Part shown: positions 6,072 to 35,883 of the stretch, one piece after another | Numbering within the stretch: position 1 is the stretch's first letter | How the letters are laid out: every line of letters begins with the position of its first letter | DNA from: an uncultured Sphingomonadaceae bacterium | GTDB lineage: Bacteria; Pseudomonadota; Alphaproteobacteria; Sphingomonadales; Sphingomonadaceae | DNA length: 64,000 bases | NCBI GenBank assembly: GCA_947496865.1 | Contig: CANMEE010000002.1 | Span: forward strand, 1,073,825-1,137,824 | Reading direction: 5' to 3' | Program-made: the position numbers and the translations under genes | Notes under the pieces: model-generated | What the model saw: the letters and a program-made list of their open reading frames with translations, nothing else | Told to the model about the DNA's origin: nothing | The model's database searches: none

Positions 6072-6699
6072 TCAACCCCCGCAATTCGTCCAGCACCACT
6101 TCGGACCCTTTTTCTATCCAACCGCCCGCGTGACTTAATTTCACATTGCCCCGCAGCATGGACGGGTCAGCGCGCAAGGGGAGCTTGCACATATCCTGAT
6201 CGATCAATTCCAAATCATCGGGATGCAAGATCAGGGTCGCGCCCTTCTGATCCTGATCAATTTTGTCTGCCAACTGGGTTGCCCACGCCTGCAACAAAAC
6301 GGGGTCTGGCACGGCGAGCTCAGAGCAACGGTGGAAAAGCGATTCAATCGCATTGAGGACCAGCGAAAAACTGCCGGTGGAATAGAGGTCGTTCAAGTAG
6401 CGGATTGCGTCTGCCAAACTTCCCGCCGCTTCCTCGTCGACAGCCAACGCTGCCTGTCCGTCTTCCCACCCCTTGCGATAGGCCGCTTCAAATATATCAT
6501 CGTCACCACCGCCGGAAGAAGCAGAGTTGTCAGCCGCCCCTGATTGACCAAAGCTGTGGAAACTATCACCGGAACCTGATCCGGCATCTGCGGATAAACT
6601 TCCCGACCAGGCGGAAAATTCTTTCTGCTCTATCGGCATGCGCCAGAGCGGAACCACTTCATCATTGTGGAGGTTTTTTTCGGAATGCAGATCAGACAT
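6028..6699 (-). CDS. fliH: Flagellar assembly protein FliH
   Basis: 223 aa. Position between fliG and fliI, overlapping both. Acidic N-terminus and FliH-like C-terminal half. Confidence 0.65.
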   Translation of the reverse strand: MSDLHSEKNLHNDEVVPLWRMPIEQKEFSAWSGSLSADAGSGSGDSFHSFGQSGAADNSASSGGGDDDIFEAAYRKGWEDGQAALAVDEEAAGSLADAIRYLNDLYSTGSFSLVLNAIESLFHRCSELAVPDPVLLQAWATQLADKIDQDQKGATLILHPDDLELIDQDMCKLPLRADPSMLRGNVKLSHAGGWIEKGSEVVLDELRGLIDEFSGQQSDNANE

Positions 6700-7744
6700 A
6701 ATCAGCGCCGCCAGTGGACATGCTGATCTCGCCGTTGTCGATCATCACTTTGGCAATCGCAATCACACCTTTCTGGGCACTGACGACCGCTTCCATCGGT
6801 TGCGGTGGTGCTTCATCCATTTCATCCTGAATAGTTTCGGCTGCGCGTTGAGACATAGCGTCGAATATTTTGGCTTTGAGCTCGCTCGATGCGCCGCGCA
6901 ATGCAGGCACCAAAATAGCGCTGTCGACTTTGCGGACCACAGAACCAATATCCTTTTTCGACAGATTCATGAGGTCGGCAAAAACAAACATTTCATCTTC
7001 AATCTGCTTGGCGATTTTGCGGTCACGTTTTGTCACGCCTTTTAAAACCGACTGGCTAAGTTGCTTTGGCAGGCTGTTGATGATGGAGGCACTATCCATC
7101 ACACCGCCGATTTCCATGGGCGGTGCAATTTCTTCCGCAGATGGTCCGTTGTTTTCCAGCAGTGCATGAATTTGTGCCAAGGCATGCGCGCTAACGGGTC
7201 CCAAAGTCGCGATCCGGTAGATTAATTCTTCTTGCAATTCCGATGGCACCAGTTGCAGCATTTCGGCCGCCGCTTCGGGTGTCATAAATGAAATTAGCAC
7301 TGCTGCGATCTGAGGCGGTTCATTTTCCACCAATTCCGCAAGGTCCTTACCGGGCACCCATTTGAGCAGGTCTGCGATGTTGCTTGGCCGTTTCGGAGCA
7401 AAGCGATTCATCATGGTTTCCGCACGTGAAGTACCCAGCGCCTGCCGGAAAACGCGGCCGACTTTTTCATCTGATTTATAAGCGAGCATCGATTGATTTT
7501 TGGTTAGCTGTAAAAATTTTTCGAGCGATCCATCAATCTGAATAGCGTCGACATCAGCAACGCTGAACATCGCCTCGCCCAATAGTTCTGCTTCATCCGG
7601 TTCAAGACGTTCCAGAATTTTGGCCGCTTCCTCGTCATCAAATAGCAGCATCAAAATCGCTGCGGTCTGACGACCGGAAATCAGTTCAAGTTGCTGACCA
7701 TCTTGGCTTTCGGCCTTATCATCTTTTTTTGCGGGCTCAGCCAT
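6692..7744 (-). CDS. fliG: Flagellar motor switch protein FliG
   Basis: 350 aa. Typical FliG repeats, including the C-terminal torque helix region (MSQRAAETIQDEMD...AQKGVIAIAKVMIDNGEI). Confidence 0.95.
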   Translation of the reverse strand: MAEPAKKDDKAESQDGQQLELISGRQTAAILMLLFDDEEAAKILERLEPDEAELLGEAMFSVADVDAIQIDGSLEKFLQLTKNQSMLAYKSDEKVGRVFRQALGTSRAETMMNRFAPKRPSNIADLLKWVPGKDLAELVENEPPQIAAVLISFMTPEAAAEMLQLVPSELQEELIYRIATLGPVSAHALAQIHALLENNGPSAEEIAPPMEIGGVMDSASIINSLPKQLSQSVLKGVTKRDRKIAKQIEDEMFVFADLMNLSKKDIGSVVRKVDSAILVPALRGASSELKAKIFDAMSQRAAETIQDEMDEAPPQPMEAVVSAQKGVIAIAKVMIDNGEISMSTGGADYV

Positions 7745-9860: not shown

Positions 9861-11132
9861 TCAGGCCGCCAGCGCACGCATATCGGCCATCCGATAGCGC
9901 AGCGTCCGTTCTGAAATGCCAAGCTCTTTTGCAGCTTCGCGGCGGTTGCCGTTGGTTTGTTCGAGGGTTTTGTTGATCGCGTCATATTCAACGCTCTTCG
10001 AAATCGACTGCAAATCACGGCCGCGTACGAACCGAGCGGAGCTGCCAGGTTGGACGGCGTCTTGCTTTGGTTGAGATGAGAGGTTTTCACTTGAGATCAT
10101 CAAGTCTTTTGCTTCGATACGATCACCGTCACACATAACCAATGCGCGTTGCAGCACGTTGGCAAGCTCGCGCACGTTACCCGGCCAATGATGGGCCTTC
10201 AATCGATCGATGCAACATTGTGAAAGTGACACGAACTTCTCATGTCCCTTTTGAAAGTCCATCATCATGAAAGCGGAGATCGCGACAATATCGGCGGGGC
10301 GAGAAGCCAGCGGTTCCAGCTCAACTGGCATGACATTTAGCCGCCAGTACAGATCTTCGCGGAATTTTCCGGCTTTCACTTCTTCTGCAAAATTACGGTT
10401 AGCAGCACAGATGATGCGAACATCGATCTTCTCATGACGGGTGGCACCGACCGGAAGAATTTCGCCTTCTTGCAGAACGCGCAAGAGCTTTGACTGGCTC
10501 TCCAATGGCATCTCGGTAATCTCGTCCAAGAAGATCGTGCCGCCATCCGCTTCCTTAAACAGGCCAACGGCGCTGGCATAGGCTCCGGTAAAGGCGCCTT
10601 TCTTATGACCGAATAAAATGGACTCGATCATCGTTTCGGTAATGGCTGCACAATTGACGGTGACGAGTTGCTTGTCAGCACGCGTGCTATGCTCGTGAAT
10701 ATATCGCGCGACGCCTTCCTTGCCGGTACCGGTCTCACCGGTAATCATGACATTGGCGTCGCTGCCTGCCACACGGGCGGCATATTTATATAAGGCAATA
10801 GATTTGGGATCAGCAAAAGCGGGCCCTTTGCCCCCGCGCATGCATTCGATGATGCAGGACAAACCAAATAGTTTGTCTGCTTCACCAAATTCAATGCGTG
10901 GGGGCTGGCTGAGGGTAGCCGGAACGAAACGGAATGGACCATCGCGATAAATTACGATGGGATCTTTTGCACCACCATTAGCACCTGTTTTTGCTGCACC
11001 ATCAATGTGGGGTAGTTGCGCAGCGGCAGATGACAATATGTGGTTGGAGTGGAAAGGTTCGACACTCCCGAGCATATCAACAAGCTCTGGAAACCTAGAG
11101 ACCAGGCTAGATTTTATTGCGTTGTTGATCAT
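9861..11132 (-). CDS. Sigma54-dependent flagellar transcriptional activator (FleQ/FlrA-like EBP without a recognisable receiver domain)
   Basis: 423 aa. AAA+ Walker A GETGTGKE, sigma54-contact GAFTGA motif (GHKKGAFTGA), Walker B IFLDEI, C-terminal Fis-type HTH (NRREAAKELGISERTLRYRM). Only about 107 non-REC-looking residues precede the AAA+ core. First gene of the fliE-fliP strand. Confidence 0.9.
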   Translation of the reverse strand: MINNAIKSSLVSRFPELVDMLGSVEPFHSNHILSSAAAQLPHIDGAAKTGANGGAKDPIVIYRDGPFRFVPATLSQPPRIEFGEADKLFGLSCIIECMRGGKGPAFADPKSIALYKYAARVAGSDANVMITGETGTGKEGVARYIHEHSTRADKQLVTVNCAAITETMIESILFGHKKGAFTGAYASAVGLFKEADGGTIFLDEITEMPLESQSKLLRVLQEGEILPVGATRHEKIDVRIICAANRNFAEEVKAGKFREDLYWRLNVMPVELEPLASRPADIVAISAFMMMDFQKGHEKFVSLSQCCIDRLKAHHWPGNVRELANVLQRALVMCDGDRIEAKDLMISSENLSSQPKQDAVQPGSSARFVRGRDLQSISKSVEYDAINKTLEQTNGNRREAAKELGISERTLRYRMADMRALAA

Positions 11133-11191: not shown

Positions 11192-11206
11192 GCAATGTGC
11201 GTGCCA
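11192..11206 (-). promoter_or_regulatory. Sigma54 (-24/-12) promoter of the activator-fliE...fliP transcription unit
   Basis: The minus strand reads TGGCACGCACATTGC, a full match to TGGCACG-N4-TTGC. It lies about 60 nt upstream of the activator ATG at 11132. Confidence 0.8.
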
Positions 11207-15196: not shown

Positions 15197-16024
15197 TTAT
15201 ATCCCTAGGGTAGCGAGCATCAGGTAGGCGGCGCGTGCCGGCTCGCTAAATGGCTTCGGCAGGTTTAAATGGCTTTGATCGTCAACATGGGCTCGGGCGA
15301 TGCGCAGATAATCTTCCGGCTGCACCATTTGCGTCTCACCATCGGACTGCGGCAAAAAATTTCCACGGGTCGGCAAAGCATTGCCGCGACCAACCAGGTC
15401 CACGGCATCGGCCAGTTTGCGCTCAAAACGGCTGCGAATATCTGCAAAGCTGCGGGCATTACCGGCGGAACTGAAAAATATATTATGGTTAGATCGAGCC
15501 GCTTTGGGAAAGACAGATGCGGCGGATGCCTCAGGGCTAGTTTCCATCTTGTTCAGGAATTTCGCTGCGCCTGCAGGTCCCAGGAAATGCGCGAGATAGA
15601 GATCAACCGACTCCGGCTTCCTGCCCGTTTTCTGCTCTAGATACTGGCTATTGTCCCGGGCAAATTCTCCTGCCAGATTGGCGGAAAGCGTTGGATCATT
15701 CCTGAGAGCCAATATGCTGGATCTCTGGGAATTATCAGCAACTGTCAGCCGCCCATTGGAATTTCTAGAAATGGCATTTTTGGCCCAACCAAGCCCGTAT
15801 TGATCACCCTTTTCCTTGACCAGACCCAGCCAGGTTTGATCGATAAATTGGTACAGGCCTGTAGCGGACGACGTCGACGCCTTGGCATCTGCCCGCATCC
15901 CGCTCTCTAGCTGCGCCTGCGCTACCAGATATTGGAAATCAACACCGGTGCGCTGCGCGCTTTGCGCGATGACGCTCGGCAAATCGCGCCGCTCGGTCAG
16001 GTTGGTGATGGATAGATTGGACAT
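15197..16024 (-). CDS. SLT-family lytic transglycosylase, flagellum-associated (SltF-like role inferred)
   Basis: SLT catalytic motif LESGMRADAKASTSSATGLYQFIDQTW. First gene of an SLT-flhA-fliA unit. Start set at ATG 16024 (GGAG upstream), because the tracked TTG at 16060 lies inside the sigma54 promoter. No obvious N-terminal signal peptide. Confidence 0.8.
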   Translation of the reverse strand: MSNLSITNLTERRDLPSVIAQSAQRTGVDFQYLVAQAQLESGMRADAKASTSSATGLYQFIDQTWLGLVKEKGDQYGLGWAKNAISRNSNGRLTVADNSQRSSILALRNDPTLSANLAGEFARDNSQYLEQKTGRKPESVDLYLAHFLGPAGAAKFLNKMETSPEASAASVFPKAARSNHNIFFSSAGNARSFADIRSRFERKLADAVDLVGRGNALPTRGNFLPQSDGETQMVQPEDYLRIARAHVDDQSHLNLPKPFSEPARAAYLMLATLGI

Positions 16025-16056
16025 GCTAGTATCAAAGTCTCCTGCAAAGGAGAGAA

Positions 16057-16071
16057 GCAATGATCATGCCA
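16057..16071 (-). promoter_or_regulatory. Sigma54 (-24/-12) promoter of the SLT-flhA-fliA unit
   Basis: The minus strand reads TGGCATGATCATTGC (TGGCAT-N5-TTGC). Its -12 box lies about 33 nt upstream of ATG 16024. Confidence 0.75.
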
Positions 16072-16124
16072 AAACTCATATTGAGAGGCTGCTACAGCGA
16101 TATATTTAGTGCTCAAATGTGAAA

Positions 16125-16151
16125 ACGCGCAGACATGTTTATGCCGCGCGT
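16125..16151 (-). terminator. Weak hairpin downstream of the flgN-like gene
   Basis: The minus strand reads ACGCGC, a 15-nt loop, GCGCGT, then TTTTCACATTT. Short stem and large loop. Confidence 0.3.
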
Positions 16152-16205
16152 AATTCAACTGTGACCCGACGTTTACAAACGCCTGGCTATTGGAAAATAA
16201 TAAAC

Positions 16206-16517
16206 CTATCGACCGCGAGTGGCATCCGAATAAGTACTGGCCTGATTTTCGCGAAATCCTGCCAATAACTGCAGTCTCGTGGAGCTATGATCACGCAAAA
16301 AGCGCAAACGATAGATGGATGCCTGCATTAAATCGTCAGCTTGGGAAATGAGCGGTTTAAGTCCCGGATCCAATTCATTGGCATTGATCGAACCCAGTTG
16401 AGCGGCGGCTTGACCCAATTGCTTGCTGGCTTGAAAAATGGCATCGCTGTCATGCCCTTCCAGCGCCGAAAACAGACTGTCCTGGGAGCTTCGGAAGGAC
16501 TCTACTATATGTTTCAT
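16206..16517 (-). CDS. Small helical protein in the flgN position (putative FlgN-like export chaperone)
   Basis: 103 aa. 4-nt overlap with the flgM stop, matching the flgM-flgN order of enteric-type clusters. Assignment is by position only. Confidence 0.4.
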   Translation of the reverse strand: MKHIVESFRSSQDSLFSALEGHDSDAIFQASKQLGQAAAQLGSINANELDPGLKPLISQADDLMQASIYRLRFLRDHSSTRLQLLAGFRENQASTYSDATRGR

Positions 16518-16804
16518 TTGTCCGATTCCACTCCAAACACCCCGTTATCCAGCATTTTCTGCGCTAGGGCGGCCGTATCGACACTATATATACCAGAGGC
16601 AATTTTCTGCCGTACGTCGGCAACTTTTTGCGCATCGAAAGGCGGCGTTTGAGCGGCCAGTATCGACGCAGTGGTGGTGATCGCCGGAGATTGTTTTGGC
16701 TGATCGGCATTGCTTTCAACCGTAGCCTTATTCGCCGCGCTATCTTGCAATACTGGCCGATCCAGCCGCGTATTAATCGCTGAGTAGCTTTCAACAGGTT
16801 TCAT
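16514..16804 (-). CDS. flgM: Anti-sigma28 factor FlgM
   Basis: 96 aa. Characteristic C-terminus (KVADVRQKIASGIYSVDTAALAQKMLD). Confidence 0.8.
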   Translation of the reverse strand: MKPVESYSAINTRLDRPVLQDSAANKATVESNADQPKQSPAITTTASILAAQTPPFDAQKVADVRQKIASGIYSVDTAALAQKMLDNGVFGVESDK

Positions 16805-16929
16805 TTCAATCTATCCTTAATACGTTCAGCTTATTGGTATTTAGTGACCTGGGCTGAAACGTTAACAACGTCTCTCGTAACAATTTACGGTCTGTTGTGA
16901 AAAAATTAATATCTTTGTCAAAAAAAAAA

Positions 16930-17427
16930 TTACTGGGCCAGTTCCACTTCCCCAGAACCGGACACGCGCGCGATCAACACTTTCGATTTACGACTGGACC
17001 GGACCGGAATGTAATCACCTACCCTGCCATTTTTTTGCGCGATAACGCCATAGCTCACACTGAAGCTAGGCCGCCGGACAACGAGGGTCAGCGGCTGATT
17101 TCTTAAAACTACATATTCGTCTGCGCGCGCGACCTTGTTCGCGGCGCGGGCTTGTGTTCGCCTGACCGGAACATATATCCTCCAACCCAGATCAGGGCAG
17201 CTCACCATCACGGCATTATTATTGGTATCTGAGAACTGCACCGGGCTGGAACAGCGTTTTAACCGCAATTTTGTGTCTATCGCCGCGCGCGCGCCACCCG
17301 CTCCGCCAACATCGGCATTTAGATGCGCTGCCACCTGTCGGTCGAGATAGGTGGTATCTTCAAACGAGGAGGCCGCGCCCATTGCAAGAACGGACAATAT
17401 GGGAATGGCAACGCGATAATATGACAT
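16930..17427 (-). CDS. flgA: Flagellar P-ring assembly chaperone FlgA
   Basis: Start set at ATG 17427 (MSYYRVAIPILSVLAMGAASS signal peptide; AGGA 7 nt upstream). SAF/FlgA-type C-terminus (GVIAQKNGRVGDYIPVRSSRKSKVLIARVSGSGEVEL). Confidence 0.8.
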   Translation of the reverse strand: MSYYRVAIPILSVLAMGAASSFEDTTYLDRQVAAHLNADVGGAGGARAAIDTKLRLKRCSSPVQFSDTNNNAVMVSCPDLGWRIYVPVRRTQARAANKVARADEYVVLRNQPLTLVVRRPSFSVSYGVIAQKNGRVGDYIPVRSSRKSKVLIARVSGSGEVELAQ

Positions 17428-17496
17428 AATGGGTTCCTGTGTACTTTGTTCAGGAAAAACTAAGCAGGTTTCATGCCAATTAGCCGGCACTCTCCA

Positions 17497-17985
17497 TTAT
17501 TTCTTTGGCAAGACAGGTTCGGGCGGAAGAAAGGTCAACACGATATTCTGTTTCTCTGCTGTTGTTGATACCAACTTATCCGGCATTTTCAGAACAATCA
17601 TGTCACCCGCCTGCCCGGCTTTTTGAAAAGCATCGGCAATGGCTGCTGATCGCGCAGCTACTTTTTCCCACTGTCGTAATCTTTGGCCGTCCTGTATCTC
17701 AGAAACGGCCGGCACATATATGGTAAGCAATTGCTTTTTCTGCACCGACAATATTTGAGAAATCTCTGAGCGGGCAAAATCTGTTAGCACCGCGCTGCTG
17801 TCGCCGAAAAATTCAACGGCTCTATATTCAAATACTCCCACGGCCTTAGAGGCCTGGTTCGTCTCACCAGATAGTTTTTCGCGGGTTTCTGGATCGGCTA
17901 TGTTCACAAAATGGGCATAGGCAAAGGCGCTGAGCAACATCAGGGCGAGGTCCAAAAAGGACAGAGTTGTACGCCCCGCCTTCAC
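17497..17985 (-). CDS. MotB/ExbD/TolR-like single-pass protein with a TM aspartate and no recognisable OmpA-type peptidoglycan-binding motif
   Basis: 162 aa, GTG start 3 nt after the stop of the MotA-like gene. N-terminal TM helix TLSFLDLALMLLSAFAYA with an embedded Asp, as in MotB (YADFVTAMMAFFLL in the canonical copy at 28195). No GHTD...NxxLSxxRA motif. Confidence 0.55.
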   Translation of the reverse strand: MKAGRTTLSFLDLALMLLSAFAYAHFVNIADPETREKLSGETNQASKAVGVFEYRAVEFFGDSSAVLTDFARSEISQILSVQKKQLLTIYVPAVSEIQDGQRLRQWEKVAARSAAIADAFQKAGQAGDMIVLKMPDKLVSTTAEKQNIVLTFLPPEPVLPKK

Positions 17986-17988
17986 TGA

Positions 17989-18684
17989 TCAGCTCGCCGC
18001 ACGCAACGGCTGTTGCGGAGAGAAATGAACCGGCCCCGAAACAAGTAATTCTCGTTTTGCAATCGCAACAGCATGTTGCACAACCGCGGCGCGATAAGCG
18101 TTCAATATATCCGCCCTGGCCTGCAGGCGCACATAGATCGGATAAGCAATAATATTCGAAACAAACAACCCATAGAGGCTAGTGAGCAATGTAAAACTCA
18201 TCGCCGGACCCATTTTTAGCGGATCAATACCCGTCGCAAAAAGCTGGATCAGACCCATGATGGTGCCAATCAAACCGATGGCGGGCGCGATTTCAGAGGC
18301 TGCGCTCCAATATGTTGCCATCATATCCTGTTTCTTTTGCACGGAATTCTGTTCAAGTCGCGCCCATTCTTCAAAGGTTTTCGCTTCTTTGGAGTTTAGC
18401 AGATGAGCAATGACGCGGGTGACAAAAACATCCTCACTGCGAACCCGTTCCAACCCCACAAACCCGTCTTCTCTCAAGACAAAGTCGATGCGACGACACA
18501 TGAAAGTGGCATTTTCTCCGCTCTCGGCAAAGGGATCTCTGCTGCATTGCAACAGGCCACCAAAGGCTAAACCAAATGAGGCCCGGCCATTTTGGAGCCA
18601 TGCCATAAGCAACACGCTGCCCAGCACCAGGCCGAAAGATAGCGGGTCAAAAAATCGACCAATATTGTTGAGAATAGCGTCCAT
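17989..18684 (-). CDS. MotA/TolQ/ExbB-family proton-channel protein (second, shorter MotA-like paralog)
   Basis: 231 aa. C-terminal channel helices APAIGLIGTIMGLIQLF...GPAMSFTLLTSLYGLFVSNIIAYPIYVRL resemble the MotA TM3/TM4 signature. Divergent from flgB and upstream of flgA. Confidence 0.75.
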   Translation of the reverse strand: MDAILNNIGRFFDPLSFGLVLGSVLLMAWLQNGRASFGLAFGGLLQCSRDPFAESGENATFMCRRIDFVLREDGFVGLERVRSEDVFVTRVIAHLLNSKEAKTFEEWARLEQNSVQKKQDMMATYWSAASEIAPAIGLIGTIMGLIQLFATGIDPLKMGPAMSFTLLTSLYGLFVSNIIAYPIYVRLQARADILNAYRAAVVQHAVAIAKRELLVSGPVHFSPQQPLRAAS

Positions 18685-18706
18685 TAGATCCCGCCTCGTT
18701 CAAAAG

Positions 18707-18744
18707 CGGCAAATTTTTTCCGGCAACCGGCAAAAAATTGCCGG
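18707..18744. repeat. CGGCAA repeat cluster with an 18-bp palindrome (candidate activator-binding site)
   Basis: CGGCAA at 18707-18712. CCGGCAA at 18720-18726 and 18727-18733. Inverted TTGCCGG at 18738-18744, giving CCGGCAA-AAAA-TTGCCGG. The cluster lies 85-120 bp upstream of the flgB sigma54 promoter. A TTGCCGG half-site also occurs at 11269-11275. Confidence 0.4.
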
Positions 18745-18828
18745 TCCAGTCTGCCTGTCGATAAAATTTTTGCCATCACGGTTACGAAATCCCCAAAAAC
18801 TGCGCTTTTTCGCCTAGTACCAGAAAAC

Positions 18829-18843
18829 TGGCACGCCCTTTGC
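18829..18843 (+). promoter_or_regulatory. Sigma54 (-24/-12) promoter of the flgB operon
   Basis: TGGCACGCCCTTTGC, a full match to TGGCACG-N4-TTGC. About 90 nt upstream of the flgB ATG at 18932. Confidence 0.85.
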
Positions 18844-18931
18844 GAAGTATTGTTCGAGATTACCGATCCCGGTGCTTCTCACGCCAAAGTGACGGTCGAA
18901 TGGCCGGACAGTTAAGACAGGATTTAATTCG

Positions 18932-19285
18932 ATGCCGAGTTTGGATCAAATTTTTGCATTAAACGGGGGAGCGCTGAAACTGCGTTCGCAGCGTCTGAAT
19001 ATGCTGGCCTCCAATATCGCAAACGCGTCCACGCCTGGATATAAGGCGAAGGACCTCGATTTCGATCGGGCGATGCAGCAAGCCCAAAATGGTGGTTCAT
19101 TGGACAAAGCGATGAAAGACCATACTGGCTTTCGCGTACCGCTCCAATCCTCGCTGGATGGGAATACCGTCGAACTGTCGGTTGAACAAACCTTGTTCGC
19201 TGAAAATGCCATTCAATATCGCACCACCCTGTCCTTCCTTAAAGGACAAGTGTCGTCGATCAAACGCGCCTTGAAAGGGGAATAG
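18932..19285 (+). CDS. flgB: Flagellar basal-body rod protein FlgB
   Basis: 117 aa. N-terminal rod motif (LRSQRLNMLASNIANASTPGYKAKD). First gene of the flgB-L order. Confidence 0.9.
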   Translation: MPSLDQIFALNGGALKLRSQRLNMLASNIANASTPGYKAKDLDFDRAMQQAQNGGSLDKAMKDHTGFRVPLQSSLDGNTVELSVEQTLFAENAIQYRTTLSFLKGQVSSIKRALKGE

Positions 19286-20397: not shown

Positions 20398-21228
20398 ATG
20401 TCTTTCTTTACGTCCCTTAGCGGCCTGAAAGCTGCACAAACCGATTTGAACGTGATTTCAAACAACGTCGCGAATACAAACTCGACCGGCTTCAAAAAAA
20501 GCCGCGCGCAGTTTGGCGACCTGTTTGCCGCTTCCCCTACCCAGACGACCAAAACCGTTGCAGGGCAAGGCGTTCGACTGACTGGCATCACACAGCAATT
20601 TACGCAGGGTACATTGCAGGCAACTGACAAAACACTGGATCTCGCGATTGCCGGCGACGGGTTTTTCTCCGTACGCGGTCAACCCCCGCGTCAGGGTCTT
20701 TCCTTTACCCGCAATGGTTCTTTCGCCGTAAATGTCGATCGTGAAGTTGTCGATACTACCGGGGCCAAGGCGCAACTTTTGCCGGTCGATGCCAATGGTG
20801 TCGCGACTTCTACCAATGCCGCCGACATGTTCGATTTCATTTTGCCTGATGCCGATCCCGGCGATCCGGCTGCGCTTCTGACCAATATCGCCGTCAACGG
20901 TGAAGGGGTTGTCAGTGCAACATTCTCTAACGGAAACCAGATTGATATTGGCGCCCTTGCGATGTCCAGTTTCAACTCCATCGAAGGTTTGCGGCCCATT
21001 GGTGATGCCCACTGGGTAGCGACCGGTGATTCCGGTCCAGCGCAGCTTAATCAGGCCGCTAACGGCCCATTGGGTCAGGTGCGCTCCGGTACGCTGGAAC
21101 TGGCCAACGTTGATATTACGGAAGAGCTGGTCTCTTTGATTTCCGCTCAGCGGAATTTCCAAGCCAATGCCCAGGCGATCGAGACGGCCAACACCCTAAG
21201 CCAGACGATTATCAACCTTCAGGTCTAA
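20398..21228 (+). CDS. flgE: Flagellar hook protein FlgE (unusually short, 276 aa)
   Basis: N-terminus MSFFTSLSGLKAAQTDLNVISNNVANTNSTGFKKSRAQF. C-terminus LELANVDITEELVSLISAQRNFQANAQAIETANTLSQTIINL. Position between flgD and flgF. Confidence 0.88.
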   Translation: MSFFTSLSGLKAAQTDLNVISNNVANTNSTGFKKSRAQFGDLFAASPTQTTKTVAGQGVRLTGITQQFTQGTLQATDKTLDLAIAGDGFFSVRGQPPRQGLSFTRNGSFAVNVDREVVDTTGAKAQLLPVDANGVATSTNAADMFDFILPDADPGDPAALLTNIAVNGEGVVSATFSNGNQIDIGALAMSSFNSIEGLRPIGDAHWVATGDSGPAQLNQAANGPLGQVRSGTLELANVDITEELVSLISAQRNFQANAQAIETANTLSQTIINLQV

Positions 21229-23567: not shown

Positions 23568-24692
23568 ATGACCCTATCATTCAAAATAACCCGTCTCGTC
23601 CATTTGCTTGCCGCACTCGCCATCACCGTGTTGATCGCGATGCAACCGGCTCAGGCGGAGCGGATTAAAGACCTCGGTCACTTCGCTGGTCTGCGGACCA
23701 ACCAGCTTGTTGGTTATGGCGTCGTGGTCGGGCTTGCCGGTACCGGCGATGACAGTCTGGAATATGCGACATTGGGTGTGAAAGGCATGACCAGCCGCTT
23801 TGGCCTGGCCCTGCCCCCCGGCGTTAACCCGGCAACCAAAAATGCAGCTGCCGTTATGGTGACAGCGGAAATGCCAGCCTTTGCCAAACCCGGTCAGCGG
23901 ATGGACGTCACCGTATCAGCAATTGGCAAGGCCAAATCGCTGCGCGGTGGAACGCTGATTTTAATGCCGCTCTATGGAGCGGATCAACAGATTTACGCGA
24001 TGGCGCAGGGGAACCTTGCCGTTGGCGGTCTTGGCGTTTCTGCAGCAGACGGATCAAGGCTAACCGTCAACATCCCTTCGGTCGGACGTATCTCAGGTGG
24101 CGCTTCGATCGAAAGAACCGTTGCCACTGGTTTTGAAACCCAGCCATTTCTCAGTTTCAATCTAACCGATGCCGATCTTACGACATCGTTGCGGGTGGCC
24201 GATGCGATTAATGAAGCTGTCGGCGCTGACATGGCCATAGCCGCGGACGCGGTAACCGTGCGTATTATTGCACCGATAGGTGTGCAGGAACGGGTCATGC
24301 TGATGGGAAAAATCGAAAACCTCAATGTGAAGCCGGCTGAAGCGCGCGCGCGGATCATTGTGAATGCGAGAACCGGCACCGTCGTCATTAACGGAGCCGT
24401 TCGTCTAGGCCCTGCAGCAGTCAGTCACGGAAAACTGACCGTGCGTGTCGAAGAAAATCCAACGGTCGTTCAACCCGAACCGTTTAGTCGGGGAAGGACC
24501 GCAGTAGAGCCGAATAGTGACATTGCTCTGGAAGATGAAGGGGCCCCTGCCTTTGAAATTGGTCGCCGTGCTTCTTTGTCAGAAATTGTCGAAACTATTA
24601 ATTCCATCGGCGTTTCACCGTCTGATCTAACAGCGATCCTGGAAGGTTTGAAGCAAGCAGGAGCCCTGAAAGCGGAGTTGATCATCATATGA
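23568..24692 (+). CDS. flgI: Flagellar P-ring protein FlgI
   Basis: 374 aa. Signal peptide ending AQA, then ERIKDLGHFAGLRTNQLVGYGVVVGLAGTGD, the typical mature FlgI N-terminus. Confidence 0.95.
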   Translation: MTLSFKITRLVHLLAALAITVLIAMQPAQAERIKDLGHFAGLRTNQLVGYGVVVGLAGTGDDSLEYATLGVKGMTSRFGLALPPGVNPATKNAAAVMVTAEMPAFAKPGQRMDVTVSAIGKAKSLRGGTLILMPLYGADQQIYAMAQGNLAVGGLGVSAADGSRLTVNIPSVGRISGGASIERTVATGFETQPFLSFNLTDADLTTSLRVADAINEAVGADMAIAADAVTVRIIAPIGVQERVMLMGKIENLNVKPAEARARIIVNARTGTVVINGAVRLGPAAVSHGKLTVRVEENPTVVQPEPFSRGRTAVEPNSDIALEDEGAPAFEIGRRASLSEIVETINSIGVSPSDLTAILEGLKQAGALKAELIII

Positions 24693-24991
24693 CCACTATT
24701 AATCCTCAAGGGAATCTTCTGGCGGCGGCGGCAACAAGTGCCACGAAACCGGCGGCCAATGGCGTCAAAACCGAAACGGAAGCGATGGCTGCTAATTTTG
24801 AAGCAATCTTCGTCCGGCAAATGCTCTCCACCATGCGCACAGCGTCTTTGGGTGAGGGTTTGTTTGACGGCCAGGGAATGGAAGAATTTCGCGATATGCA
24901 GGATAGCATGCTGGCAGAGAATATGGCGGACAAAGGCGTTTTTGGCATTGCCGAATTGCTGACTCGCCATGTGGAGAAAAATAATGTCTGA
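24689..24991 (+). CDS. flgJ: Rod-binding protein (FlgJ N-terminal-domain-only form)
   Basis: 100 aa. Rod_binding-type motif FEAIFVRQMLSTMR...EEFRDMQDSMLAENMADKGVFGIAELL. No glucosaminidase or muramidase domain. Confidence 0.8.
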   Translation: MTTINPQGNLLAAAATSATKPAANGVKTETEAMAANFEAIFVRQMLSTMRTASLGEGLFDGQGMEEFRDMQDSMLAENMADKGVFGIAELLTRHVEKNNV

Positions 24992-27327: not shown

Positions 27328-28191
27328 ATGTTCGCTGGAATTGGTATTGTTGTCTTGCTCGTCATGGTTTTTGGCGTGTTCATGATTTCTGGCGGTGACA
27401 TGGGCGTCGTTGTAGCTGCTCTGCCAGTTGAAATGGGCATTATCGGCGGATCCGCTGTTGCCGGACTGATCATCGGTAATAGCAGCGCACAACTCAAAGC
27501 CTTGATGGGGGGCTTTGGAAAAGTCTTTAAAGGTCCAACCTACGTGAAACAGGATTATATGGACTGCATATTGCTGGTTTCAAAACTGACAAAAATCCTG
27601 AAAAGCGAAGGTCCAGTGGCTCTGGAACCTCATATTGAAGATCCGAAAGCATCTCCGATATTCAGCGAATATTCGAAGCTTTTAAAAGACGACACGCTGA
27701 TCCATCTCATCGCTGACAGTCTCAGACTTGTCGTTGTTTCTTCCGGCACACTCGATCCGCACGCGGTCGAAGATGTTATGGATCAAGCGATCAAGACCCA
27801 CCATCACGAAGCAATTGCGCCGGCTGACAATCTTCAGGGTTTGGCTGATGCCTTGCCCGCATTGGGTATTGTTGCCGCTGTTCTGGGCATTATCAAAGTC
27901 ATGGGCTCGATCGACCAGCCTCCGGTAGTCTTAGGGGGGATGATCGGCTCCGCACTCGTTGGGACTTTCCTGGGCGTTTTGCTGGCCTATGGTTTGGTTG
28001 GTCCGATGGCCAATCGCGCGCGTTCTGTTATCGAAAGCGATGCGAGCATTTATCATGTCGCCAAACAGTTGATCATTGCTAGCCTCCACGGCCATCCACA
28101 GCCGCTCATTATTGAGGCGGCTCGCACCAGCTTGCAGCATGCAAATCAGCCAAGTTTCTCCGATGTATTTGATGCCATAAGGGCGAAATAG
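27328..28191 (+). CDS. motA: Flagellar stator protein MotA (canonical copy)
   Basis: 287 aa. Four TM helices. Channel signature LPALGIVAAVLGIIKVMGS...GGMIGSALVGTFLGVLLAYGLVGPMANR. Confidence 0.92.
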   Translation: MFAGIGIVVLLVMVFGVFMISGGDMGVVVAALPVEMGIIGGSAVAGLIIGNSSAQLKALMGGFGKVFKGPTYVKQDYMDCILLVSKLTKILKSEGPVALEPHIEDPKASPIFSEYSKLLKDDTLIHLIADSLRLVVVSSGTLDPHAVEDVMDQAIKTHHHEAIAPADNLQGLADALPALGIVAAVLGIIKVMGSIDQPPVVLGGMIGSALVGTFLGVLLAYGLVGPMANRARSVIESDASIYHVAKQLIIASLHGHPQPLIIEAARTSLQHANQPSFSDVFDAIRAK

Positions 28192-28194
28192 ACT

Positions 28195-29052
28195 ATGGCC
28201 AAAAAAGCAGCTCCGGAGCCGGTTCGACCGATCATTGTCAAAAAAATCATTATGGAAGACCATGGCGGCCATCACGGCGGCGCGTGGAAAGTCGCCTATG
28301 CCGACTTTGTAACGGCCATGATGGCGTTCTTTTTGCTGATGTGGCTACTTGGGGCAACGGATGAGAAGCAACGCAAGGGTATCGCGGATTATTTCGCGCC
28401 GACGCTCGCGCAGGTAAAACGCGATAGCGCGGGGGGCAAAGGGATGTTTGGCGGCTCTTCCGTCACCGACCCTGATAAATATCCCTACCCGGCCAAAAAT
28501 ACAGCGGCTACGGCCATAGCTGTGCCGAGTAATACAGCAGGCACTGACCAAGGTAAGGATGATGGCAAAAAAGCCAAACCCAAGTCCATCACCGCTAAAG
28601 AATTTGAAAAGCGCATTCGCGAACAACTCAAAAATGATCCGGGCAACCTCAAGCTCCTGTCAAACGTCCGCTTCACGGATACAGCAGAGGGCCTGCGCAT
28701 CGATATTATCGATGAAGCGGATTTCAGCATGTTTGCTTTGGCCACAGACGATCTGAAATCGAAGGCGGCAGAGCTGATTGGACAGGTCGCACGGATTATC
28801 AATACCGTCGATAATGAACTCATTATCAGAGGTCATACAGACAGCCTGCCTTATGCGAGCGGGCAAAGTATGAATAATTGGCTCCTGTCCTCTGCCAGAG
28901 CAGAAGCAACCCGACAGGAACTGGTCCGGCGAGGCGTCGCAACGGGCCGCACAGCCCGGATTGAGGGCGTCGCAGACACGGAACCCTATAATCCAGCAGA
29001 ACCCATGGATGATAGAAACCGGCGCATATCAATAACAATGAAAACTATTTAG
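28195..29052 (+). CDS. motB: Flagellar stator protein MotB (canonical copy)
   Basis: 285 aa. TM helix with conserved Asp (WKVAYADFVTAMMAFFLLMWLL). OmpA-like PG-binding domain (IIRGHTDSLPY...NNWLLSSARAEATRQELVRRG). Confidence 0.95.
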   Translation: MAKKAAPEPVRPIIVKKIIMEDHGGHHGGAWKVAYADFVTAMMAFFLLMWLLGATDEKQRKGIADYFAPTLAQVKRDSAGGKGMFGGSSVTDPDKYPYPAKNTAATAIAVPSNTAGTDQGKDDGKKAKPKSITAKEFEKRIREQLKNDPGNLKLLSNVRFTDTAEGLRIDIIDEADFSMFALATDDLKSKAAELIGQVARIINTVDNELIIRGHTDSLPYASGQSMNNWLLSSARAEATRQELVRRGVATGRTARIEGVADTEPYNPAEPMDDRNRRISITMKTI

Positions 29053-29573: not shown

Positions 29574-30659
29574 CTATGGGCCGTTGGAATAGGTCATAAC
29601 GTTGTTACGCCCCTGAGATTTGGCTTCGTACAGCGCCAAATCTGCCTTCCTGAGGAGAGAGCGTTTTGTATCTGTCTCAAGGCCCTGGGCAACTCCAGCG
29701 GAAAAGGTGACCTTGCCCACCGCGCTACCGGACTCCAGATCGACAAGTTCGCGACGTGCCAAAACCTCACGGCATTCATCAATTCTGCGGCATACTTCGT
29801 CAACATCGACATCTTCAAAAATAACGGCAAATTCTTCTCCACCATAGCGCGATGTATGACATTTGCTGTTCGACAGCGATGATAGCTCATCGGCGACAAG
29901 TCTCAGAACCCGGTCGCCACATTCATGACCAAATGTGTCATTGACCTTCTTAAAGTGATCAATGTCGATGAAAGACAAGACCAACGGCTGATCATCCTTA
30001 TGCATCTTCTCTAAGCTCGTATCCAAAGTACGCTCAAACTTTCGCCGGTTCGGGAGTTTGGTTAGCTGATCGAAATCAGCTTCATTTCTTGCTTGCTCCA
30101 GTTCGCCTTGCAAACTGGCCAGTTTCTCATTGGTTTCAGCGATTTGCTCTCTGTTTTCACGTGTAGATTCAACCATGAGTTGCGAAAGATCGAGCAGTTT
30201 CTGGATAGCAGCATCGATGTTTCCGGACCCCGTGCGGATGTTGTCAGCATGCTCGATCAAATTTGTTTCACATTCGATGGTGTTCTTATTCCCATCATCA
30301 ATGATCTGCGTGGTATTGCGAATATGTTCTATCGCCTGCATCAATATCTTATCAATATGGATGCCAATATCTGATCGCAAATATTTCTCATGCAACTGTT
30401 GGGCCGCTGCGTTGTCGAGACGTCCGGCAGAAGACAATCCCATGATTTCGTTTTTGAGAACGCTCTTCCCACCGCAAATATATTCCCAAGCCAATTCCAG
30501 GTTACCGGAAGACAAGCTGAGATTATGTTGGTGAATGAAACTAGCAATAGCATAGAGCGGAGACTTCTCGCCGTCATCTTCTATGCAAACAGGGCATGTT
30601 TCATCGCCGTTATTTTCGCGGAAATAGCTTTCGAGTATATTTTTGATATCTAATTTCAC
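29574..30659 (-). CDS. Diguanylate cyclase (GGDEF domain) with an uncharacterised coiled-coil N-terminal region
   Basis: 361 aa. C-terminal GGDEF domain (DIDHFKKVNDTFGHECGDRVL...SRYGGEEFAVIF). No RxxD I-site five residues upstream of GGEEF. No TM helix. Confidence 0.9.
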   Translation of the reverse strand: MKLDIKNILESYFRENNGDETCPVCIEDDGEKSPLYAIASFIHQHNLSLSSGNLELAWEYICGGKSVLKNEIMGLSSAGRLDNAAAQQLHEKYLRSDIGIHIDKILMQAIEHIRNTTQIIDDGNKNTIECETNLIEHADNIRTGSGNIDAAIQKLLDLSQLMVESTRENREQIAETNEKLASLQGELEQARNEADFDQLTKLPNRRKFERTLDTSLEKMHKDDQPLVLSFIDIDHFKKVNDTFGHECGDRVLRLVADELSSLSNSKCHTSRYGGEEFAVIFEDVDVDEVCRRIDECREVLARRELVDLESGSAVGKVTFSAGVAQGLETDTKRSLLRKADLALYEAKSQGRNNVMTYSNGP

Positions 30660-30660
30660 G

Positions 30661-32082
30661 TCATGCTCTCAATCTGGGTTGCGGCATCCGATTGTACGCA
30701 TCTAACGCAGCAACCTTGTAAGCCTCGGCTAATGTTGGAAAGTTAAAAACTGTATCGGACAAATAATCGATGCCACCATCGAGATTGAGGACCGCTTGAC
30801 CGATATGGATAAGCTCCGTCGCGCCCTCGCCGACAATATGCACGCCTAGTAATTTTCGATTATTCAGATCAAAAATACATTTCAGCATACCTTTGCAATT
30901 ACCCAATATATGACCACGGGATGTTTCCTGAAATCTCGCCACACCAATCTCGACTTGCATGCCCTTACCGCGCGCTTCTTCTTCGGACAGCCCGATGCTG
31001 GCAATTTCGGGGATGGAATATATGCCCAGCGGGAAGCTGTGCTCAGAACAATGAATCGGATGATTAAAAGCATGGCAAGCTGCCAACCTGCCTTGCTCCA
31101 TTGAAGTCGACGCCAGCGCTGGAAAGCCGATAATATCTCCAGCCGCATAAATATGAGGCTGTGATGTCTGCAGCGTTTTCGGATCTACCGACAATCTTCC
31201 CCTCTTATCCGGCTCAATGCCAATTTTATCGAGGCCAAGCTTGTCGACGGCGCCAACACGGCCTGCAGTAAACAGCAGCATCTCGGCCCGGAGTTGACGA
31301 CCATCATCCAGTTCAACATGTGGGTTATCGTTTTGATCTAGTTTAATCGTTTTAATCGCTCTGCCCAAACGAAGACTAATCCCGCGTTCAGACAGTTGAT
31401 GCGTGAAATTTGCAATTATATCGCGGTCAATAAATTCCAATATGTTTTCACGCGCCTCTACTACCGTTACGGGAATTTCAAGTGTGGAGAATATCGTCGC
31501 ATATTCCAGACCGATAACACCACCGCCGACCACTATGATCGATTTCGGCATCGGCATGTTGGCCGCAATGCAATCACTGTCGACCACGGTCGTGCCATTA
31601 AACGGAATATGATTTGGCCGGTAAGGCTTCGTACCGACAGCAATCAGAAATTTTTCTGCCGTAACAGTATAGCTTGTTTTCTTCCCTTGAACGGATTGGG
31701 AAACCGCTAGTTTATTGGGTCCGGCAAACTTCGCCCTACCTTTCAGCGTGGCGATGTTGTTCCGGCTTAATTGGCTGTCGATCACTTCGACTTCGTCACC
31801 CAAAGTGGTTGAAAGACGGGAAGCAATGGAATTTTGTGTGACGTCTGTACCGTCTCGCTGACGCCCTGCTTTGAAATGTTGGTCGCGCCATCCGGTCACT
31901 GACAGAACTGATTCCCTGATCGTCTTTGATGGCAAGGTTCCGGTATGAACCGAAACGCCGCCTATTTTCTTTTGATCGTCAACAATGGCAACTGATTTGC
32001 CAAGTTTGGATGCTTGAATTGCAGCTCTGCGTCCTGCGGGACCACCTCCAATTATCACGAAATCATAGTCAAAATCAGTCAT
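30661..32082 (-). CDS. sthA: Soluble pyridine nucleotide transhydrogenase (SthA/UdhA-type flavoprotein disulfide reductase family)
   Basis: 473 aa. FAD motif VIIGGGPAGRRAA, a second Rossmann motif IIVVGGGVIGLEYA, and the motif GGVSVHTGTLPSKT (no redox-active Cys pair), as in SthA. Confidence 0.8.
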   Translation of the reverse strand: MTDFDYDFVIIGGGPAGRRAAIQASKLGKSVAIVDDQKKIGGVSVHTGTLPSKTIRESVLSVTGWRDQHFKAGRQRDGTDVTQNSIASRLSTTLGDEVEVIDSQLSRNNIATLKGRAKFAGPNKLAVSQSVQGKKTSYTVTAEKFLIAVGTKPYRPNHIPFNGTTVVDSDCIAANMPMPKSIIVVGGGVIGLEYATIFSTLEIPVTVVEARENILEFIDRDIIANFTHQLSERGISLRLGRAIKTIKLDQNDNPHVELDDGRQLRAEMLLFTAGRVGAVDKLGLDKIGIEPDKRGRLSVDPKTLQTSQPHIYAAGDIIGFPALASTSMEQGRLAACHAFNHPIHCSEHSFPLGIYSIPEIASIGLSEEEARGKGMQVEIGVARFQETSRGHILGNCKGMLKCIFDLNNRKLLGVHIVGEGATELIHIGQAVLNLDGGIDYLSDTVFNFPTLAEAYKVAALDAYNRMPQPRLRA

Positions 32083-32321
32083 TTATTTCCCTTTCGTGTT
32101 TTGGTTAACGGCGACAGAGAAAAACATTAACCTCCAGGATCAATATAAACGTGATTTTGGGAGAAATGGCAGCTGCTGATGGAAAACCATCGTTGAGCGG
32201 CTGCCCTAATATTCGTACACCAATTTGCGACATATCTTAACAACTTGTCACTTCATGCCAAATACACGCAATTTTTGTTGAAACTGCAACCAGTTGCAAT
32301 TAGTGGACTGGACGCTATTAG

Positions 32322-33016: not shown

Positions 33017-33361
33017 CTACAAATCCATTGCCGCATCCAAATAGGCAACGCATTGCGCACGCGCATGGTCTGTCATGCAAATACAATCGGCATCATGCTT
33101 GCCACAACGGGTAATAAAGTCATGGTTTGAAAAAACAGTAATCCAACGAGATGCAATCGTATCTGTCGTGGACAGTTTTCCAAGTAGGTCTGATTTCGAA
33201 ACGCATTGATGCTGCTCGGTCGCTATATAGATTTCCAGCAACAACTCCCATGCAGGGTCGCCAAATAGACCGTCGTTTGAGAAGAATAGGCTTCTTTTGC
33301 GTTGCATGGCCAGAAATTGTTGAGCCCGCTCTACAGAGCTATCTAATATTTTATCCGTCAT
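33017..33361 (-). CDS. Hypothetical protein, probable winged-helix DNA-binding protein
   Basis: 114 aa. ATGA overlap with the stop of the radC-like gene. GDPAWELLLEIYIA...SKSDL...IASRWITV resembles a wHTH family I recall from alphaproteobacteria (unverified). Confidence 0.5.
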   Translation of the reverse strand: MTDKILDSSVERAQQFLAMQRKRSLFFSNDGLFGDPAWELLLEIYIATEQHQCVSKSDLLGKLSTTDTIASRWITVFSNHDFITRCGKHDADCICMTDHARAQCVAYLDAAMDL

Positions 33362-35331: not shown

Positions 35332-35883
35332 TTAGCCCAGTAGACCTGAAAGAGACTGAGAGACAGCCAGGCCGATCAACACAATTGCTAAAATGCCGAC
35401 GGTCATGCCAACAATGATAGCCAATCTTTGAACGGTACCCAGATCACCACTCGGTTCCTTCAAGGCTTGCAAAATAAAATCAGATTCATGGGAAGAATGA
35501 AAGCCGTATGGTACGGCTGCTTCTTCCAACATGAACGACTCAGATTGTTCGCCCTGAGAAGCTTTTGCCGCTATTTCAGGAGCAGATGGAAGATAGGCCG
35601 GATCATATATGATCCGATCATAGTCCCCAGCAGCACGCGCATAGACAATTGCGGCCTCATCTCGCGTGGCCACATCCAAAGTACGGCGAGCGCTATCAAG
35701 ACGCTGATCCACAGCCGGTTTGGATATGTTCAGAATCCGAGCAATTTCTTTTGATGATTTTCGCAGGACCACAAGATGCAAACATTCTCGCTGCTTCTCA
35801 GTTAGCTTCGCAACACGTGCGGCTTCAATTTCAAACTGGACCACTAGCAATCCCCACGAACCAATTGGAATATACGTTCTCAT
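35332..35883 (-). CDS. LuxR/GerE-type HTH regulator with a C-terminal transmembrane anchor
   Basis: 183 aa. N-terminal LuxR HTH (LTEKQRECLHLVVLRKSSKEIARILNISKPAVDQRLDSARRTL). C-terminal hydrophobic helix (LAIIVGMTVGILAIVLIGLAV). Confidence 0.7.
   Translation of the reverse strand: MRTYIPIGSWGLLVVQFEIEAARVAKLTEKQRECLHLVVLRKSSKEIARILNISKPAVDQRLDSARRTLDVATRDEAAIVYARAAGDYDRIIYDPAYLPSAPEIAAKASQGEQSESFMLEEAAVPYGFHSSHESDFILQALKEPSGDLGTVQRLAIIVGMTVGILAIVLIGLAVSQSLSGLLG

Follow-up and report, generated by a model that had tools for sequence, protein, structure and literature searches.

A stator-like gene pair between flgB and flgA

We describe a pair of short genes, denoted A and B, in the flagellar gene cluster of an uncultured marine Sphingomonadaceae bacterium (GenBank assembly GCA_947496865.1, contig CANMEE010000002.1, positions 1,073,825 to 1,137,824 of the forward strand; this whole stretch of 64,000 nucleotides (nt) is the window, and coordinates count from its first letter). 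A (17989..18684 (-), ATG start) encodes a 231-amino acid (aa) PomA-like MotA paralog that lacks the first transmembrane helix (TM1), and B (17497..17985 (-), GTG start) encodes a 162-aa "mini-MotB", with only 3 nt between the stop codon of A and the GTG of B. Both open reading frames (ORFs) are found at exactly the coordinates and on the strand given in a preliminary description of this DNA, which had read them as a truncated, stator-like MotA/MotB pair tied to flgA. We find it highly probable that the pair is a divergent second flagellar-stator paralog of the PomAB ("TGI4") type, associated with the flagellum.

The neighborhood is entirely flagellar. As previously described, flgB is divergent from A, and flgA (16930..17490 (-), P-ring chaperone, PF13144 ChapFlgA) is the next gene downstream of B on the same strand; we find that this strand also carries the distal genes of the A-B-flgA string, flgM (16514-16804 (-), PF04316 FlgM) and a 103-aa flgN-like ORF (16206-16517 (-)), the latter of which is assigned by position and size and has no family match in a search of the hidden Markov model (HMM) library. 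A lytic transglycosylase gene, flhA and fliA lie past it on the same strand. On the divergent strand, the genes flgB, C, D, E, F, G, H, I, K and L precede those for a canonical stator of E. coli type, MotA (287 aa) and MotB (285 aa), at 27328..29052 (+). This motAB had been correctly recognized before, is confirmed here by MotA_N and MotA_ExbB domains in MotA and MotB_plug and OmpA domains in MotB, and is presumed to encode the primary stator. Genes fliF, G, H, I, K, L and M and a sigma-54 activator gene are located further upstream in the window, which has one flagellar system and a single fliG (6692-7744).

The A subunit is PomA-like and lacks TM1

The assignment of A to the MotA/ExbB family, made earlier from its MotA-like TM3/TM4 stretch, is upheld by a match to PF01618 (MotA_ExbB) of 63.4 bits over residues 84-194, relative to a gathering cutoff of 22.9. 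Among NCBIfam models, A scores best with PomA, a MotC-type model and MotP, all far under their equivalog cutoffs (86.2 bits for the PomA equivalog NF006527, cutoff 341), and the TolQ and ExbB models are marginal (20.7 bits for TolQ, cutoff 221). A sequence search of the PDB returns PomA as the best match (8brd, E 7e-19, ~25% identity), with MotA at 1e-13 and TolQ at 8e-3. The AlphaFold2 (AF2) model of A has a predicted local distance difference test score (pLDDT) of 81, and Foldseek places PomA first (TM-score 0.70-0.73), MotA next, and ExbB (~0.55) and TolQ last. An HMM built from the A clade gives 165-186 bits on PomA-like proteins with four transmembrane (TM) helices, 44-46 bits on E. coli-type MotA and 20-28 bits on TolQ and ExbB. 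Sequence, fold and clade HMM thus agree on PomA, in line with the earlier view that the pair is stator-like and not of the TolQR/ExbBD kind.

Hydropathy reveals exactly three TM segments in A, which the PomA alignment identifies as TM2, TM3 and TM4 of PomA: TM-a (residues 12-30, 18595..18651 (-)), TM-b (residues 132-150, 18235..18291 (-), with P134, G137 and T141) and TM-c (residues 162-180, 18145..18201 (-), with T168/S169), the latter closely followed by P182 (PomA P199). Only a short N-terminal tail precedes TM-a; it carries an FFDP motif that corresponds to the F29-D31 loop of PomA, with D13 and P14 kept in 26-27 of 30 clade members. Since PomA aligns only from its residue 24, within the periplasmic loop between TM1 and TM2, the first TM helix is absent from A. 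The ATG is preceded, at a distance of five codons, by an in-frame TGA that makes an N-terminal extension impossible; a missed exon or upstream start that would supply TM1 is ruled out by the same stop codon. Longer database entries for A have N-terminal extensions that are unconserved and are therefore miscalled starts, and in 59 of 60 testable metagenomic A genes, the sequence upstream is either too short for a further TM helix or contains no hydrophobic stretch. A is therefore a PomA-type stator A subunit truly without TM1, and the earlier term "truncated" is apt. The missing helix leaves a topology like that of ExbB and TolQ, with the N-terminus predicted to be outside, in the periplasm.

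This topology, together with the sizes of 231 and 162 aa, is what a housekeeping energizer of the ExbBD/TolQR type would show if it had come to lie in the flagellar cluster by chance. We regard this explanation as almost certainly wrong, and reject a TolQR/ExbBD identity on sequence, fold and context: A goes with PomA and MotA, far from TolQ and ExbB, the periplasmic domain of B is OmpA-like, and the flagellar synteny is invariant (see below). Furthermore, in a tree rooted with E. coli TolQ and ExbB, the MotA/PomA-type proteins, including the three-TM clade, group together to the exclusion of the roots in 100/100 bootstraps, and the clustering with TolQR or ExbBD orthologs that had been entertained earlier is not seen. 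A stator homolog from a defense system, such as ZorAB, was likewise considered and ruled out, as the PADLOC models for ZorAB and other defense stator homologs give no relevant match to the pair.

The FIT/GIT framework of a recent survey of flagellar stators (Puente-Lelievre et al. 2025, PMC12505986) takes a four-helix TM "square fold", a plug and linker, and an expanded peptidoglycan-binding domain as flagellar-specific, and mentions neither sphingomonads nor three-TM forms. Between TM-a and TM-b, the AF2 model of A has helices at 34-44, 59-73, 75-80, 86-97 and from 101 onward that superpose on the cytoplasmic domain of PomA; A thus has the cytoplasmic torque interface of at least four helices expected of a flagellar stator in that framework (FIT group) and, in the AF2 model only, a continuous TM3 (one helix, 101-151).

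The B subunit is a pared-down MotB

As proposed in the preliminary description, B is a single-pass protein with an Asp in its TM helix. Approximately eight cytoplasmic residues precede the helix (residues 9-27, 17905..17961 (-)), and the Asp, D12 (codon 17950-17952 (-)), corresponds to D24 of PomB and D32 of E. coli MotB. The stretch R5...F26, D12 included, is invariant among 25 Parasphingorhabdus homologs, which makes the TM helix the most constrained part of the protein and supports the GTG start over the Met16 start selected by some gene callers; D12 is also invariant across genera. Many database entries for B are 143-147 aa long with Met16 chosen, and have thereby lost the invariant D12 and half of the TM helix; named entries are mostly labeled "hypothetical protein". 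Our analysis corrects this annotation, in which the assigned start often removes an essential Asp.

A linker of ~22 residues, in place of the long linker of MotB, connects the TM helix to a small (~100 aa) periplasmic OmpA-like domain (residues 50-153, 17527..17838 (-)), identified from its AF2 fold and Foldseek. The model is beta-alpha-beta-alpha-beta-beta with a pLDDT of ~80, and matches OmpA-like domains only (YfiB, H. pylori MotB-C, Pal, OmpA-C and PomB-C, E 5e-5 to 1e-3); no ExbD or TolR structure is found among the top 50 fold matches listed, and B has no Pfam match to PF02472 (ExbD/TolR). Along the domain, FFGDSSAVLT (the OmpA "F.f.S..L" pattern) is followed by VPAV in the place of GHTD and by RLRQWEKVAARSAA, which contains a degenerate form, QWEKVAAR, of the MotB motif NWELSAxRA. 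The sequence of B itself is weakly informative: its best match in the library is Pfam OmpA (PF00691) at 13.9 bits, below the cutoff of 27.2 (E 0.069), and searches of the PDB with the single sequence and with a profile find nothing. The link to MotB came only via the fold comparison and a broader family profile. Seven of eight B family members match PF00691 (best E 1.7e-7) and four of eight match PF13677 (MotB_plug; best E 1e-9). Comparison by hhalign of a cross-genus B profile with the MotB of the window is significant (E 3.6e-5), while narrow Parasphingorhabdus profiles give no significant match to the MotA and MotB of the window. The B family HMM spans the TM helix and OmpA domain of canonical MotB end to end, skipping ~100 MotB residues in between; ExbD and TolR align to it in the TM helix only. 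Orthologs of B from different genera have in common F60, L67, R102, A111, R112, G124 and the motif RLD-WELAAAR, which is the MotB form (SNWELSADRA in E. coli) of the OmpA motif NxxLSxxRA.

We conclude that B is a pared-down MotB, in which a short linker joins the Asp-bearing TM helix to a degenerate OmpA-like domain. The earlier statement that no OmpA-type motif is visible is thus right for the canonical GHTD...NxxLSxxRA signature and wrong for the domain as a whole. Of the standard OmpA or ExbD periplasmic domain that had been considered for B, the OmpA fold is there, in a form that falls below the Pfam threshold and in which the Asp of GHTD is lost.

Residues of the ion path and the rotor-facing surface

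We compared 30 members of the three-TM clade with 34 four-TM relatives, using residue roles from the PomAB structure paper (PMC10374538) and mapping residues of A by the PomA alignment. Along the ion path, PomA P151 (E. coli MotA P173; P134 in A) and T158 (T141) are kept in 30/30 clade members, P199 (P182) and G154 (G137) in 28/30 each, and D148 (E131) as D or E in 30/30. T185 (T168) is T in 22/30, and T186 (S169) is T in 24/30 and S in 6/30. PomB F22 and D24 correspond to F10 and the invariant D12 of B, F10 being invariant within Parasphingorhabdus. The pair thus has the TM Asp in B and the two conserved Pro in A (E. coli MotA P173 and P222) that are characteristic of stators, and this conservation of the ion path indicates that the ion-conducting, rotating core is intact. 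The three Thr positions of PomA are retained as T, T and S/T, while canonical MotA, both from E. coli and from the window, has Ala in place of T158 and Gly in place of T185, an H+-type pattern. This suggests that the coupling ion of the short pair may be Na+, although the hint is a weak one since TolQ and ExbB likewise have Thr at the T158 position.

The rotor-facing charges are less constrained than in the four-TM relatives. The acidic residue of PomA E96 (E79) is D or E in 28/30 clade members vs. 29/34 four-TM relatives, and the R135 position is R or K in 22/30. Immediately after the E96 position, 22 of the 30 carry a clade-specific Arg, creating a (D/E)79-R80 motif, and those members that have no Arg at the position of PomA R88 have basic residues displaced by one to two positions.

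The pair occupies the flgB/flgA junction in sphingomonads

A scan of a genome collection by B alignment matched 32 species-level genomes, all Parasphingorhabdus or Sphingorhabdus, and the order flgB<-|->A, B, flgA, flgM, flgN, SLT, flhA is found in 32/32. Close homologs that bear organism names also come from these two genera only, and those of locus L001 are 93-100% identical, which identifies the organism as a Parasphingorhabdus and bears out the order Sphingomonadales presumed in the preliminary description. An exhaustive HMM search with the A profile against 1.84 billion representative proteins gave 2539 matches at E<=1e-3. The top ~25 clusters are 215-248 aa long and align from their own residue 2-12, and so are also without TM1; four-TM PomA-like proteins (254-260 aa, aligned from ~residue 25) start at E ~1e-25. 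Named members of the A clade come from Sphingobium, Blastomonas, Sphingomonas vulcanisoli and Zymomonas mobilis. The same gene layout was read in Sphingobium, Z. mobilis subsp. pomaceae and four further lineages, in which B is 150-218 aa, and a metagenome scan with a cross-genus B alignment yielded 80 loci; where testable, A is directly upstream in 70/70, flgA is directly downstream in 73/74 and flgB is divergent in 55/55.

In total, the pair is never found outside the flgB/flgA junction in >120 loci, and no non-flagellar partner gene travels with it. Both observations oppose the idea that this is an ion motor with a non-motility role, e.g., energization of the envelope or of secretion, that is merely co-regulated with the flagellar cluster. 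Stator homologs have been recruited to non-flagellar tasks in AglRQS, ZorAB and SiiAB, and a direct link of our pair to the rotor is itself only putative; we nonetheless consider this explanation very improbable.

The canonical motAB genes follow flgL in Sphingobium and in locus L043 as well. In Z. mobilis ZM4, a published gene table annotates the canonical pair as motA1/motB1 (ZMO0603/0602) and ZMO0617 as motB2. Wherever this could be checked (the window, Sphingobium, L043 and, by annotation, Z. mobilis), the canonical and short pairs thus occur in one cluster. A plasmid collection contains only distant matches to four-TM PomA-like proteins and no sphingomonad copy.

Comparison with 32 relatives gives ratios of nonsynonymous to synonymous substitution rates (dN/dS) of 0.04-0.07 for A and 0.09-0.12 for B, compared to 0.09 for flgA, 0.12 for flgM and 0.04 for flgB; A and B are under purifying selection. 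We therefore view as very improbable the proposal that the pair is a decaying duplicate, i.e., the non-functional remnant of a second stator operon, even though the loss of TM1 and of the linker and the degenerate motifs might suggest as much. The ORFs are intact, core residues are invariant across genera that share only 22-32% identity, the truncated architecture recurs in 59/60 testable metagenomic genes, and the pair is kept in the small 2-Mb genome of Zymomonas.

In a neighbor-joining tree of the top matches from the exhaustive search, nearly all TM1-less proteins form one clade beside the four-TM PomA-like proteins, and the few exceptions among the four-TM group look like truncated entries. 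In the best rooted tree, the three-TM clade is monophyletic and nested in the PomA-like group, with weak support for monophyly (38/100 bootstraps); four-TM PomA-like proteins and E. coli-type MotA form one clade with the three-TM clade outside in 15/100. The simplest reading is a secondary loss of TM1 in a PomAB-type paralog in an ancestor of Sphingomonadales; the clade could also represent an intermediate architecture between generic three-TM ion transporters and four-TM flagellar stators. The pair has apparently been kept at a fixed site across the whole order. The preliminary description had proposed an insertion into the flagellar regulon, a view that holds only in comparison with enteric clusters, as here the pair is ancestral and fixed; absence of the pair from related flagellar clusters, which had been held up as a counterargument, is not observed, since every locus examined has it.

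Comparison with known rotary ion motors

PomAB, the Na+-driven polar stator of Vibrio (PDB 8BRD, 8ZYV), is closest to the pair in both sequence and fold. The two share the four-helix cytoplasmic domain, the continuous TM3, both prolines, the T158/T185/T186 triad as T/T/S(T), the F22/D24 of PomB as F10/D12, and adjacent, translationally coupled A and B genes. Unlike PomAB, our pair has no TM1 in A and a B subunit of 162 aa vs. 315, without a long linker, a recognizable plug or the GHTD aspartate, and the R88 and D114 charges are unconserved across the three-TM clade. The canonical MotAB of the window belongs to the same superfamily and cluster as the pair and probably to the same promoter class, but A shares only ~13% identity with canonical MotA, which has MotA_N and four TMs; canonical MotB differs in having MotB_plug, a ~110-residue linker and GHTD, and its motif NNWLLSSARA corresponds to QWEKVAARSA of B. 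ExbBD and TolQR resemble the pair in a three-TM A subunit with a periplasmic N-terminus, a B subunit of ~140-160 aa and the TM Asp, and differ in sequence clade, a condensed cytoplasmic domain, the ExbD/TolR periplasmic fold, genomic context and their TonB or TolA partners.

Dual stators are already known, and MotAB with MotCD (Pseudomonas), PomAB with MotAB (Shewanella) and MotAB with MotPS (Bacillus) likewise place two subtypes in one flagellar system. The window pairs are one E. coli-like ("TGI5") and one PomA-like ("TGI4"), with the second inside the flagellar cluster, as is motCD. To our knowledge, all described second stators combine a full-length four-TM A subunit with a full-length B subunit. 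Our pair differs in that A and B are both reduced, and in its link to flgA instead of che/mot genes. A pair of such reduced architecture is not described in any paper that we found, the literature offering only generic annotations or "motB2" (ZMO0617). ZMO0617 and the MotA/TolQ/ExbB-family gene upstream of it in Z. mobilis ZM4 are most likely orthologs of the pair, given the identical position of the pair in Z. mobilis subsp. pomaceae; the name of ZMO0617 is annotation only.

Predicted promoters of the flgB/A spacer

The spacer between flgB and A is 247 bp. A perfect sigma-54 promoter, TGGCACGCCCTTTGC (18829-18843 (+)), faces flgB from 88 nt upstream and is conserved in Sphingobium and in loci L037, L040 and L041; it is the sole sigma-54 promoter in the spacer, the A strand having none. 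A sigma-54 promoter for the A-B operon was considered and discarded, as the GGCA-N-TGCC elements there are palindromic and have the wrong spacing. Two 20-nt palindromes (CGGCAA-N-TTGCCG, 18704-18723 and 18725-18744, no strand assigned), conserved across genera, lie 21 nt apart (two helical turns), 20-60 nt upstream of the A start codon and 85-125 bp upstream of the flgB sigma-54 promoter, where enhancer sites of an activator are expected. They are most likely enhancer sites through which a FlbD/FleQ-like sigma-54 activator acts on flgB and, being so near the start of A, the activator could also repress or gate the A-B operon.

The sigma-28 consensus is TAAA-N15-GCCGATAA. At 18890..18915 (-), the sequence TTAACTGTCCGGCCATTCGACCGTCA, of the form TTAA-N16-CCGTCA, is a candidate promoter of the sigma-28 (FliA) type for the A-B-flgA-flgM-flgN operon. 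The motif TTAA-N14-16-CCGTYM has six matches in the window vs. 0.9 expected, three of which are the element at 18890-18915 and those that precede flagellin and canonical motA. TTAA...gACCGT is kept in 33 aligned flgB/A spacers (the window and 32 Parasphingorhabdus genomes), and a similar element occupies the same position in Sphingobium and L037. These matches suggest that the A-B operon may be expressed late, in a FliA-dependent manner, together with motAB; since the motif was partly derived from the same sites, this is a lead and not proof. A conserved block, TCC-GT-TTAA...CGG...GACCGT, adjoins the flgB start (18916-18925 (-)) and on the flgB strand spans the leader and ribosome-binding site, such that it could serve translational control of flgB besides the proposed sigma-28 promoter. 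A scan for sigma-70 promoters and terminators gives nothing convincing, and Rfam finds no RNA family over 16000-19100.

A proposed auxiliary stator or a possible retargeted motor

How might the pair work? In the reading that we find most likely, A and B would form an ion-driven rotary unit of 5:2 stoichiometry in the inner membrane, as MotAB, PomAB and ExbBD do, and would probably be transcribed from the FliA-type promoter along with other late flagellar genes. The unit would work at the single flagellar motor beside MotAB; the acidic and basic patch that A retains would contact FliG, and the OmpA-like domain of B would anchor the unit. We put at about even the chance that the pair is an auxiliary or alternative stator-type unit acting at the flagellar motor, and at slightly below even the chance that it generates torque on FliG.

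A number of observations weigh against a working stator. PomA R88 and D114 are rotor-facing charges indispensable for function (PMC10374538); R88 (R71 in A) is R in only 10/30 three-TM clade members vs. 31/34 four-TM relatives, and D114 (N97) is D in 13/30 vs. 32/34. A has three TMs only, and so does not form the four-helix square fold. Window B has no PF13677 MotB_plug match and no recognizable plug helix, residues 32-48 are variable with low pLDDT, and the GHTD aspartate of OmpA-type peptidoglycan binding is lost, which makes the anchoring of B uncertain. The pair adjoins the gene for an assembly chaperone, flgA, not motAB. The promoter assignment is a motif match only, and in published Z. 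mobilis RNA sequencing data motB2 (ZMO0617) did not track flgB in hfq mutants. Finally, our literature searches yielded no experiment on any member.

Several of these features would fit a repurposed, stator-derived rotary motor in which ion flow and rotation are kept and the output is not torque on FliG but another flagellar step, such as assembly of the P/L-ring or a periplasmic structure with FlgA, recruitment or gating of stators, or braking. We view this as possible, if on the unlikely side. In its favor, the ion path is strictly conserved, in contrast to the relaxed FliG-facing charges; a clade-specific (D/E)79-R80 motif appears; TM1 and the linker and plug of MotB are lost; the peptidoglycan-binding motif is degenerate; and the place directly upstream of flgA is fixed. 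Against it, a basic patch persists one to two residues away from where PomA has R88, the E96 position remains acidic, the cytoplasmic domain of A has the PomA fold, and no candidate alternative partner was identified. We also know of no flagellar assembly step that needs a MotAB-type motor. The relaxed charges, the losses, including that of the GHTD aspartate, and the fixed linkage to flgA lead us to keep open a more specific proposal, which is a tentative and rather doubtful one: the three-TM PomA-like/mini-MotB clade would have been retargeted to drive or gate FlgA-dependent P-ring or periplasmic assembly or stator loading, with its rotor-facing surface and periplasmic anchor remodeled and ion conduction and rotation kept.

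The three-TM clade breaks two or three of the proposed architectural rules for flagellar stators (PMC12505986), and does so within the flagellar cluster of at least five sphingomonad genera, at every related locus sampled, beside a normal MotAB. If the pair proves to be a working stator, torque can be generated without TM1 and the long MotB linker, and structural and biophysical studies gain a minimal stator. Otherwise, the pair is a motor derived from a stator that has taken on a new role in the flagellum; the retargeted role, if true, would mean that MotAB-type motors do a third kind of job within the flagellum.

Other features of the cluster

The longest flgA ORF begins with GTG at 17490; a signal-peptide-like sequence, MSYYRVAIPILSVLAMGAASS, begins at an ATG at 17427 preceded by GGAA, and this ATG is probably the true start on sequence grounds, which would widen the gap between B and flgA from 6 to 69 nt. 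A weak sigma-70-like site (17443-17416) lies in this spacer.

Further canonical sigma-54 promoters (TGGCAC-N5-TTGC) are found at 11192-11206 (-), upstream of the sigma-54 activator gene (9861-11132), and at 16057-16071 (-), at the called start of the transglycosylase-flhA-fliA string, from which it follows that the start was wrongly called at TTG 16060. The SLT-domain transglycosylase (15197-16060 (-)), between flgN and flhA, is separate from the rod-binding protein of ~100 aa, which is encoded in the flg operon by a small ORF between flgI and flgK (about 24690-24970); FlgJ is thus split into a rod-binding protein and an SLT transglycosylase, in an SltF-like arrangement. The hook protein FlgE (20398-21228 (+)) is only 276 aa long and lacks the D2 domain, making for an unusually minimal hook. 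FlgE is 280 aa in Sphingobium and 421-434 aa in Zymomonas and L043, and FlgE_D2 is detected in L041 and L043.

The sigma-28-like motif seen upstream of flagellin and motA also occurs (32106-32130 (-)) 23 nt upstream of a pyridine-nucleotide-disulfide oxidoreductase gene (30661-32082), downstream of which lies a GGDEF diguanylate cyclase gene (29574-30659), directly past motB; this arrangement suggests that a cyclic di-GMP enzyme may belong to the late flagellar regulon. Just past the flagellar cluster, genes for a RadC-like JAB-domain protein (33358-34134 (-)) and a LuxR/GerE-type regulator (35332-35883 (-)) lie in a region of reduced GC content (0.45-0.48).

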